From assembly GCA_965223705.1 (NCBI GenBank), contig OZ245015.1:960001-1024000 (forward strand): a stretch of 64,000 nt of DNA, in the 5' to 3' direction. The position numbers are program-made. Each line of letters starts with the position of its first letter. The first letter of the stretch is position 1. This DNA comes from Myxococcota bacterium (GTDB lineage Bacteria; Myxococcota_A; UBA9160; UBA6930). This document shows, piece after piece, positions 36,001 through 39,000 of the stretch.

Positions 36001-39000
36001 CGAGCCGCTGGTTCAGCGCCACGAGAAAGTCGATGGTCGCGGTGGCATCTCGCGGCACCGATGCAAGCCAGGCAGCGAGCCCCGGGCCCGGCCGCTCGAC
36101 CTCGAGGAACGGCTCGAGTTCCTCCGCGAGCCAGGGCTCGTATTCGAACGGCCAGCGCTCTGCACTCTCTTCGAGGAAGAAATCGAAGGGGTTGATCACC
36201 ACCATCTCGGCGACCAGATCCACCGTCACGCGCAGCTCGCGCGCGGGCTCGGGCACGACCACGCGGGCGAGAAAATTCCCCTGAGGATCCTGCTGCCAGT
36301 TCAGGAAATGTTCTTCGGGTTCGATGCGGAGCGAGTAGCTGGCTACGGGCGTCCGACAATGGGGGGCCGGTCGCAGCCGGATGGTCTGCGGCCCCAACCG
36401 CACGGCTCGGTCGTAGCGGTAGCGGGTCTCGTGATGAAGGGCGACGCGTAGGGTCATGTCGGTGTCGTACTCGCTTGCAGAGGACTTAGCACGCCGGCGG
36501 GAAAGAGCATGCTTCGCGGAAGATTGCCACGGTGACGAGTCCTTGGGTCACGGCGATATACTTGGGAACCACAGGGGGAGGTGAGCTTTACAGACGCGCG
36601 GGCGTCTGGAGGTCTCGGTGGTGGCAGATCCGAAAGATGTGATGAGTCGAACGCGATTGTTCCTGATCGACGCCGCGCTGGTCGTGGGGGGCGTGGTTCT
36701 CCTCGCCTGTGGGCTCATGAAGATCGGCGAGTGGTCGTTGGGTCACCCCGCTTCGTCATGGGGGATCCCCGTCCAAGATTGGGCGCTCGCCGCACTTTGC
36801 CTCCTCGTTTTCGCCGGAGTCCTCTGCGTGCGGGCACTCGTCGCGCGGGGAGCTGACGAGAGCGTCGGAGACGAGATCCCGGTTGAGCCGCCGGCCGCGC
36901 GTCCCAGCCCCGTTCCGATCCCGCCTCAGGCCCCCGAACCTCCGGCTCGCGTTGCCGAGGTTGTGACGGGTCCGCGGCCTCCGGTTCGCCGAGGGAACGC
37001 GCTCGAACGGGCAGCAGCGGCGGAAGAACGGCGTCAGGCCCGCTTGCGGGCGGAGCGCGAGCGCCAGTCCACGCCGGACGAGCCGGTTCGCTACGTGGAC
37101 GACGTCGCCATCGCACCGGACGAGCCTGCCCAGGCAGAAGCGAGCAGGCCGAAGCCGCCGCGCTTGCGCGCTGTCGATCCGGGTGGGAACTTCCTCTAGT
37201 CGATGAGCAACCACCGGGTGGGAACTTCCTCTAACTGATGAGCAACCCGTCGCCGACCGAACGCACCATCTGGATCGATGGAGAGTTCGTGCCGTGGAGC
37301 CAAGCGACGGTTCACGTGCTTTCGCACAGCCACCAGCGCGGCTCTCTCGTCTTCGACTACATGAGTGTGTACGAGACGCCAGAGGGACCGGCGGTCTTCC
37401 GCTTGAACGACCACGTCGAGCGCTTCTACGCGTCTATCGCGTTGGTCCGCTTGCCGTTCACGTGGGAGCGCCACGAAGTGCGCGCCGCGATTCGGGATGC
37501 CGTGCGCGCGAATCCAGGTGCGAAGGCGGTGAAGGTCTCGGCCTACCTCGCGTCGGTGGAAGTCGATGTGGTGCCGATCGACACGCACGTCACGCTGGCC
37601 GTCGCGGCCTACGACCCGCTCGAAGACGTGATACGACCGGCGGGCGGCGATCGACCCGCTGTGCGCAAGCCCCTCAAGATCTGGCTCGAGAAGGAGCTTC
37701 GCAATCGCCGCAAGGACATCCTGTCTCCCCAGGCGAAGGTCGCGGCGAACTACGCGTCGCCGATGGCGGCGAAGTGGGCGGCGCGGGAGCTCGGGTTCGA
37801 CGAAATCCTGCTCATCGACAGCGACGGCTATCTGGCCGAAGGGCCCACGACGAACGTCTTCCTCGTGGATCCCGAGGGCGTCGTCTGCACCCCGCCCGAG
37901 GAAGGCGTGCTCCTCGGGGTGACCCGGAAAGCGATCATCGAGCTCGCCCGGGCCGAGGGCTTCACCGTAGTCGAGCGCGCGCTTCAACCCGATGAGCTCT
38001 TCGACGCCGCCGAGGCGTTTCTCACCGGGACGAGTGCTGGCGTCTGGCCCATCGGGTCGGTTGACGAACGGGCGATTGGCACCGAGGTTCCCGGGCCGGT
38101 GTCGCGCGCGCTGGCGGAGCGGTTTGCAAAGATCTCCGCCGGTGCCGATCTCGAGTTTCAGCACTGGCTTACGCCGGTCTCGCCCGCTGGCGCCCGCGAC
38201 TTCTGAGGAGCCTCCATGCGCATTCTCTCTGGGATCACCCCTTCGGGCGAACCCCACATCGGCAACTACTTCGGCGCGATCCGCCAATACGTTGAGCTGC
38301 AGGCGAAGGGTCAGGCGATCTACTTCATCGCCGACTACCACTCGATGAACAGCGTGCGCGACGCGAAGGAACGCCGGCGCCTGGTGCACGAGGTCGCGCT
38401 CGATTTTCTGGCGTGTGGCCTCGATCCCGAGAACGCCATTCTCTACCGGCAATCCGATCTTCCGGAGCTCTGCGAGCTGTGCTGGCTGCTCACGACGATC
38501 ACGCCGATGGGGCTTCTCGAACGCGGCCACGCTTACAAAGACAAAGTGGCACAGGGCCAGTCCGCGGATCACGGCCTGTTTGCGTACCCCGTACTGATGG
38601 CGGCGGATATTCTCATCTACCGCTCCGATCTCGTCCCGGTCGGGCAAGACCAGAAGCAGCACATCGAAATGACGCGCGATCTCGCGCAGCGCTTCAACAA
38701 CACGTACGGGGAAGAAGTGTTCGCGCTTCCCGAGCCCTATATCCTCGACGACGTCGCCGTCGTACCCGGGACCGACGGGCGCAAGATGAGCAAGAGCTAC
38801 GACAACACCCTGCGCCCATTTTGGTCGAAGGGGAAGCTCAAGAAAGCGGTGATGGGGATCGTCACGGATTCGACCCCGGTCGAAGAGCCGAAAGACACGT
38901 CATCCGCCGTGTTCCAGTTGTGGTCGTTGTTCGCCACCGAGGACGAGCGCGAATCGATGTTCGCCCGCGCGAAGGCTGGCGGCTTGGGCTACGGCGACGT

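Follow-up and report, generated by a model that had tools for sequence, protein, structure and literature searches.

How does a bacterium that keeps the genes for peptidoglycan assembly obtain D-glutamate (D-Glu) when a glutamate racemase gene cannot be found in its genome? The genome-wide survey's note raised this question at a gene in the window (the whole 64,000-nucleotide stretch of DNA analysed here) that encodes a fold-IV aminotransferase, and proposed it as a D-amino acid transaminase supplying D-Glu.

The D-glutamate step in this genome

The enzymes around the missing step are in place. Genes for MurC, MurD, MurE, MurF, MurG, MraY, MurB and FtsW lie in the division cluster, Ddl and an Mpl-like ligase are encoded outside the window, and alanine racemase is encoded within it by alr (60981–62195, forward strand; TIGR00492, 310 over a cut-off of 168), in keeping with the survey's statement that the mur genes including MurD are present. 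The alr gene is unlinked to the transaminase gene; its product would furnish the D-Ala donor for the route proposed here.

The genome is 95% complete in two contigs, and the survey's report that it holds no Asp/Glu racemase family stands. A Pfam search of the genome gave a best PF01177 match at E 0.007, below cut-off; three profiles built from racemases of the class returned nothing at E<=10, and tblastn reached E 0.046 at best, in a local search with a positive control. Given the completeness of the genome and the lack of a match by Pfam, the three profiles or tblastn, we rejected mis-assembly or an overlooked divergent MurI as explanations. The MurL/MurD2 pair of Xanthomonas solves the same missing step, but MurL was not found in this genome, as the survey had also concluded: NF041275 was silent at E<=0.1, whereas in two other genomes of the phylum, both without MurI, that model reached E~1e-89. 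A fifth Mur ligase proved to be Mpl-like and a sixth to be FolC, and the MurL/MurD2 route was likewise rejected.

Chlamydial DapF offers another MurI-free route to D-Glu, and the genome has one DapF gene, which the survey had noted, as well as Cys/Met PLP enzymes. D-Glu might then be made by a moonlighting enzyme with racemase activity (DapF, Alr or a member of the cystathionine beta-lyase family), and the transaminase gene would encode an L-amino acid or (R)-amine transaminase apart from the wall. PMC5885031 reports that an E. coli strain auxotrophic for D-Glu is rescued by DapF of Chlamydia and cites glutamate racemase activity for the cystathionine beta-lyases of Wolbachia and Thermotoga. 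The rescued auxotroph, as described there, had its own dapF, so an ordinary DapF is insufficient, and the best score here for NF041088, a model of Ala/Glu racemases, is 281 of 629. Together with the active-site evidence given below, this leads us to regard a moonlighting source combined with such an L-amino acid or (R)-amine transaminase as quite unlikely. One Cys/Met PLP-enzyme gene (G000:C1:3543125–3544242) is matched in two overlapping frames, perhaps because of a frameshift.

A further source in this genome could be an Orr-like racemase of the Alr fold beside a DgcN-like acetyltransferase (C1:3706299–3708587), where NF040742 scores 338 of 480 bits and NF041892 169 of 480 bits. This racemase occurs in only 3 of 39 class genomes and therefore cannot account for the class-wide lack of MurI; we hold it to be very improbable as the source of D-Glu. 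At that locus (L098 and L255, G000:C1:3706299–3708587, reverse strand) the acetyltransferase gene is followed by the racemase gene, both under cut-off, and the racemase is also found in 8 of 162 other genomes of the phylum.

Other fold-IV genes were considered as well. The survey had remarked that such genes exist, and there are five in the genome, among them the canonical IlvE at C1:679379, which confirms that a true IlvE is present elsewhere. Two amine-transaminase-like genes (L002-like) were rejected as a class-wide source: no match above 41% was found in 60 class genomes, and one of the two genes was the query. A further fold-IV gene of the class (L103–L105) was set aside because it carries a canonical BCAT motif and is absent from this genome.

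A transaminase gene next to trpS

The candidate gene (37238–38206, forward strand) is an uninterrupted ORF of 322 aa, P0001, that encodes a fold-IV PLP transaminase with the scaffold of IlvE (type I BCAT) and an active site like that of group II D-amino acid transaminases. Nine nucleotides past its end starts trpS (38216–39187, forward strand; tryptophan--tRNA ligase, TIGR00233 over cut-off), the neighbour that the survey had named. This linkage would reflect housekeeping-level expression and not a common pathway. Upstream lies a 193-aa ORF (36618–37199, forward strand) without a family match. A 34-nt direct repeat (91%; 37179–37247, forward strand) covers the stop of this ORF and the start of the transaminase gene, and yields a short ORF of 11 codons, its stop codon overlapping the ATG of the transaminase gene. 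The repeat region 37179–37247 is identical in contigs of two DNA runs from one study, which is a possible source of the stretch.

P0001 falls below all NCBIfam cut-offs, as the survey had reported for every BCAT and DAT model; its top matches are PRK06606 (221.6 of 279) and TIGR01122 (213.6 of 245.55). Compared by sequence with solved structures, it scores 164 bits against P. aeruginosa IlvE (6nst), 141 against E. coli IlvE (1i1k), 96 against Halhy, 61 against CpuTA, 58 against AmicoTA and 47 against the Dat of Bacillus sp. YM-1 (1daa), which places its scaffold much nearer to IlvE than to the group II enzymes. In a fold search with its AlphaFold2 model (pLDDT 87), the top matches were BCATs (TM 0.83–0.85, about 30–34% identity) and Halhy ranked 50th. 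That both kinds of search put BCATs first is a point for the reading with a moonlighting source of D-Glu. A homologue 85% identical to P0001 is labelled 'Myxococcales bacterium' in one source.

Active site and stereospecificity

With type I IlvE (E. coli 1i1k, P. aeruginosa 6nst and Thermus 1wrv), P0001 shares the fold, the PLP residues, a GT[ST]A turn and a C-terminal WL motif. The catalytic PLP lysine, Lys167 (codon 37736–37738, forward strand), is intact, as are R62, Y172, E201 and R230, and these five residues are the same in all 46 class loci examined (the 30 best-scoring and 16 from a second order). What differs is the substrate pocket, and a true IlvE coexists with P0001. Aligned to E. 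coli IlvE, P0001 has R34 for Y31, F39 for F36 (the Phe kept), Y41 for G38, S43 for R40, K99 for R97 and D110 for G108; Y95 has no counterpart in the alignment to 1i1k, and the interdomain WGAYLG motif of BCATs is replaced.

BCATs are marked by YxxxxF[ED]Gx[KR] and YxR, and group II D-amino acid transaminases by RxxxxF with a second R or K, as described in PMC8401098, PMC10671532 and PMC12429042. P0001 reads R34xxxxF39xY41xS43 and A97xK99, and the nearest published motif is the RxxxxFDYFL of Halhy. Arg34 (codon 37337–37339, forward strand) stands opposite IlvE Tyr31, the alpha-carboxylate Arg position of group II (Halhy R28, Amico R27, Blasa R34), and with F39 it provides the first-shell Arg in RxxxxF. 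Lys99 (codon 37532–37534, forward strand) stands opposite IlvE Arg97 and provides the R or K that lies in the second shell of the group II dyad, on the betaY strand (CpuTA K117). R34, F39, D40 and K99 do not vary among the 46 class loci, and R34 is invariant in three homologue sets (119/119, 115/115 and 117/117). The likeness to group II extends to the FDY of Halhy and to the beta-turn GPTT, which resembles the GPTS of CpuTA and Blasa, with D110 at the site of Blasa D105; as in group II, there is no Y-R-H trap. In AmicoTA the corresponding Arg holds the alpha-carboxylate of D-Glu (PMC10003956), and in Rv0812 the R26 at this position confers transaminase activity, an R26A change lowering its rate (PMC8105722). 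Arg34 of the partner subunit would bind the substrate alpha-carboxylate in the O-pocket and reverse stereospecificity.

Three other identities fit these residues poorly. With RxxxxFDYxS and AxK in place of both BCAT motifs, and with scores under the cut-offs, P0001 does not match a canonical IlvE. It proposedly shares with Bacillus Dat (group I) the reaction D-Ala + 2-oxoglutarate -> D-Glu for peptidoglycan, but it lacks the Y31/R98/H100 carboxylate trap (it has F39 and V109-D110-V111) and K35, and TIGR01121 scores only 84 of 277. Nor does it carry the HxxxxYD[VT] and [FY]xE motifs of (R)-amine transaminases, to which L002 and L003 in this genome are nearer. The loss of the BCAT residues and the missing His/Tyr motif weigh against the L-amino acid or (R)-amine transaminase that a moonlighting source of D-Glu would leave for this gene.

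Where the pocket would meet the gamma-carboxylate, P0001 departs from much of group II. A basic residue in beta-turn 2 is common, though not universal, in that group (K237 in Amico, an Arg in Cpu and Blasa, as published accounts have it); beta-turn 2 here is GT[ST]A (G264-T-S-A in P0001), with no K or R at 264–267 in the 46 class loci. Position 43, the second known gamma-carboxylate site, is Ser43 in P0001, not basic, and mostly Ser in the class. DtolTA, with a similar uncharged GTTV turn, is reported to be very weak on D-Glu (PMC11673721), although Halhy is described as doing without a P-pocket charge. Taking these residues together, we consider that P0001 is probably a D-specific transaminase.

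The same Arg opens another reading, in which the gene product is PabC, an aminodeoxychorismate lyase, either with this function only or bifunctional as Rv0812 is. An Arg at the R34 position marks the bifunctional Rv0812 group (Rv0812 and MSMEG_5795, ADCL-DAAT), and most class genomes have two or three chorismate-binding genes. Overexpression of the M. smegmatis gene MSMEG_5795 is reported to rescue a murI deletion (PMC8105722). Rv0812 has an ADCL-like scaffold, and P0001 scores 58–95 against the cut-offs of 253–278 of the PRK07849 models and 43–95 bits across ADCL models; neither a sufficient model score nor a PabB partner was found. The single chorismate-binding gene here is TrpE-like (G000:C1:2564568–2566040), with no PabB evident, and a separate PabC-like fold-IV gene is present both here and in each of the five other class genomes that were checked. 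With a lone TrpE-like gene and a PabC-like gene of its own, the genome is unlikely to need P0001 as an ADC lyase, and we judge this identity very unlikely.

Distribution in the class and phylum

The survey had MurI missing across the class, which proved overstated: MurI is rare in the class, not absent. A MurI-like gene occurs in 12 of 121 class genomes (two canonical, nine divergent and under the TIGR00067 cut-off, one partial), which leaves about nine in ten sampled class genomes without a visible glutamate racemase. Its contrast between class and phylum holds in the main, since TIGR00067 matches 150 of 162 other phylum genomes; the class count is not zero but 5 of 39 (one over cut-off). A MurL-like match, weak and partial, appeared in 1 of 39 class genomes. 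PF01177 matches in the class (23 of 121 genomes; 23 of 32 matches inspected) belong by sequence mainly to racemases of the aspartate, hydantoin or other types.

The transaminase shows the opposite pattern. Its orthologue was found in 111 of the 121 class genomes; the phylum sample has it in 37 of 39 genomes of the class and in 0 of the 162 others, in line with the survey on both its near-universality in the class and its absence from the rest of the phylum; among the 40 top out-of-class matches inspected in the phylum, 39 are canonical IlvE and one was unparsed. Directly downstream of it lies trpS in 44 of the 46 class loci, and the remaining two reach a contig edge. Of the ten class genomes without the gene, five were checked, and in every one the assembly has a gap at trpS: the trpS gene is also missing from three and stands at a contig edge in the other two. 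All 12 class genomes with a MurI-like gene retain the transaminase gene. Because the class is one lineage, gain of the transaminase and loss of MurI count as one event.

Several observations concern D-Glu supply elsewhere in these groups. The divergent MurI (L072, L066–L068; G043, G023, G098, G115 and others), under the TIGR00067 cut-off, is 75–84% identical across genera of two families, which suggests that it was re-acquired by transfer. MurL homologues of about 300 bits occur in two MurI-less genomes of one genus of the phylum (G206 and G234; L250 and L251), with weaker partial MurL-like matches in five further genomes. Other MurI-less phylum genomes (G125, G123, G147 and G127; L116, L117, L120 and L121) have no MurL and carry fold-IV genes with Dat-like turns, possibly separate solutions. 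They include a family of the phylum (f18) in which MurI was found in 0 of 5 genomes.

Relatives outside the class

Contrary to what the survey had supposed, the enzyme type is not confined to the class. A profile search over 1.84 billion representatives returned, among the best 150 matches, many further proteins with Arg at the IlvE-31 position. In a 112-row tree, which left out partial rows and some canonical IlvE rows, all 50 Arg rows form one clade (support 0.98) amid IlvE sequences. A tree built without the motif columns groups 14 clade members at 87/92 and joins them, P0001 included, to type I and type II IlvE (100/99) and not to a Halhy/Amico-like proxy. Uniting them with this proxy (L267) in one clade was nevertheless not rejected (p-AU 0.058), with one proxy in a tree that held no characterised sequence. 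P0001 would resemble a group II enzyme in how it works, and its assignment to group II would be one of motif. Members of the clade may be among the Gram-negative 'Clade II' of Arg26 proteins or the unassigned group described in PMC8105722.

A pattern scan of GTDB found at least 120 stretches; of 80 inspected, 79 encode clade members, and those listed come from Desulfobacterota, Acidimicrobiia, Leptospiraceae and a few others, including the isolates Dethiosulfatarculus sandiegensis and Desulfospira joergensenii. Sources that name these proteins mostly label them branched-chain aminotransferase. In 5 of the 79 outside loci alr follows the clade gene directly on the same strand, in three of these with an alanine dehydrogenase gene (ald) upstream, and one ald-containing locus has a TRAP transporter in between. 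The genes for alanine dehydrogenase, the clade transaminase and Alr are co-oriented in L144, L151 and L160; L144 also has TRAP genes, and L151 a gene for a GntR regulator. Such a unit would be chemically sensible if D-Ala is a substrate. MurI was not found in any of the three genomes with an alr-linked clade gene that were tested. In two MurI-less genomes, G304 and G307 (Dethiosulfatarculus), no fold-IV genes were found other than clade members and a type II IlvE, and G308 has an additional Halhy-like fold-IV gene.

Beyond the class, an anti-correlation with MurI was not seen in an even sample of Desulfobacterota. MurI is over cut-off in 28 of 50 carrier genomes (50 of the 79 loci tested, completeness not given), among them 9 of 9 Acidimicrobiia and 4 of 4 Leptospiraceae carriers. 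In the even sample, of 221 Desulfobacterota genomes, MurI is present in 11 of 20 carriers versus 137 of 201 non-carriers (Fisher p 0.32), and 64 MurI-less genomes have no clade gene. A lean in that direction shows among 29 carriers found by pattern and assigned to Desulfobacterota by record title, of which 12 have MurI (p 0.007 versus the same non-carriers), in a set that is non-independent and unfiltered for completeness and whose phylum grouping is our own.

These surroundings bear on a further reading, in which the D-specific transaminase would salvage or clear D-amino acids (D-amino acid + pyruvate -> D-Ala -> L-Ala -> pyruvate), D-Trp possibly among them next to TrpRS, and a moonlighting enzyme would supply the wall with D-Glu. 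Beyond the class the gene keeps company with TRAP genes (DctM in 10 of 79 loci), with ald and alr and with a GntR regulator gene, a setting that looks naturally catabolic; the gene coexists with MurI in more than half of the carrier genomes tested, and the basic gamma-carboxylate site is missing. Inside the class it looks housekeeping, being near-universal where MurI is scarce, with the checked gaps due to assembly, and no other class-wide source of D-Glu was found. Also against this reading, trpS was near the clade gene in 0 of 80 outside loci. On this evidence we hold salvage to be an unlikely explanation of the class gene.

In Acidimicrobiia, whose genomes have MurI, the clade gene adjoins isochorismate synthase in eight loci (L127, L139, L142, L155, L164, L168, L196 and L200), with acyl-CoA ligase and crotonase-family genes near. 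The chorismate-binding neighbour is thus not PabB; the supposed PabB linkage was rejected, which counts against the PabC reading.

Proposed role and significance

Comparison of sequences and gene content makes the trpS-linked transaminase the best candidate for D-Glu supply in this class. In the proposed route, Alr makes D-Ala, the transaminase would convert D-Ala + 2-oxoglutarate to pyruvate + D-Glu, with substrate and direction predicted, and MurD would take up the product. We put the probability that this transaminase is the main D-Glu source of the class at roughly 0.55; were D-specificity granted, that role would be rather likely. In its favor, the gene is nearly universal in a class mostly without MurI and MurL, canonical IlvE is kept alongside, the Orr-like racemase and the other fold-IV genes are not class-wide, and distant clade members lie in units with ald and alr. 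Against it, the MurI-bearing class genomes and many outside carriers keep both genes, no basic gamma-carboxylate residue is evident in the class loci, and no cell-wall gene was found linked to the transaminase in the class. What the survey had proposed survives in part, with its candidate better supported than it knew: the RxxxxF and Lys dyad, the lost BCAT motifs and the near-universal presence speak for a D-amino acid transaminase that supplies D-Glu, whereas the premises of a class-wide absence of MurI and of a class-specific enzyme do not hold, and carriers often keep MurI.

More tentatively, and at somewhat less than even odds, we suggest that these enzymes form a third lineage of D-amino acid transaminases with an origin of its own, which descended from an L-specific IlvE through a small number of active-site changes (Y31R, R97K and loss of R40 and Y95), spread to several phyla and replaced glutamate racemase in the ancestor of a Gram-negative class.

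Dat as a source of D-Glu and the Arg/Lys dyad are already known; what seems to be new is that the dyad sits on an IlvE scaffold and has become fixed in a Gram-negative class poor in MurI. Among openly searchable papers, judged mostly by title and the opening of the abstract, we found no IlvE-scaffold D-amino acid transaminase and no study of D-Glu in the class. The work puts forward a gene that can be tested for an essential step missing from an uncultured class, and because isolates carry the clade, testing is possible without that class. If the proposal is true, it describes a natural L-to-D switch within the IlvE scaffold and would point to the few positions that set the stereospecificity of fold IV, and the common label branched-chain aminotransferase would need correction for many clade proteins.

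Other features of the window

Two further gene groups lie in the window. Just upstream of the transaminase region, positions 28958–36457 hold a cluster of circularly permuted ATP-grasp, alpha-E, amidotransferase-transglutaminase and DUF2126 genes, and at 54971–59305 three trypsin-PDZ (HtrA-like) protease genes stand in tandem.
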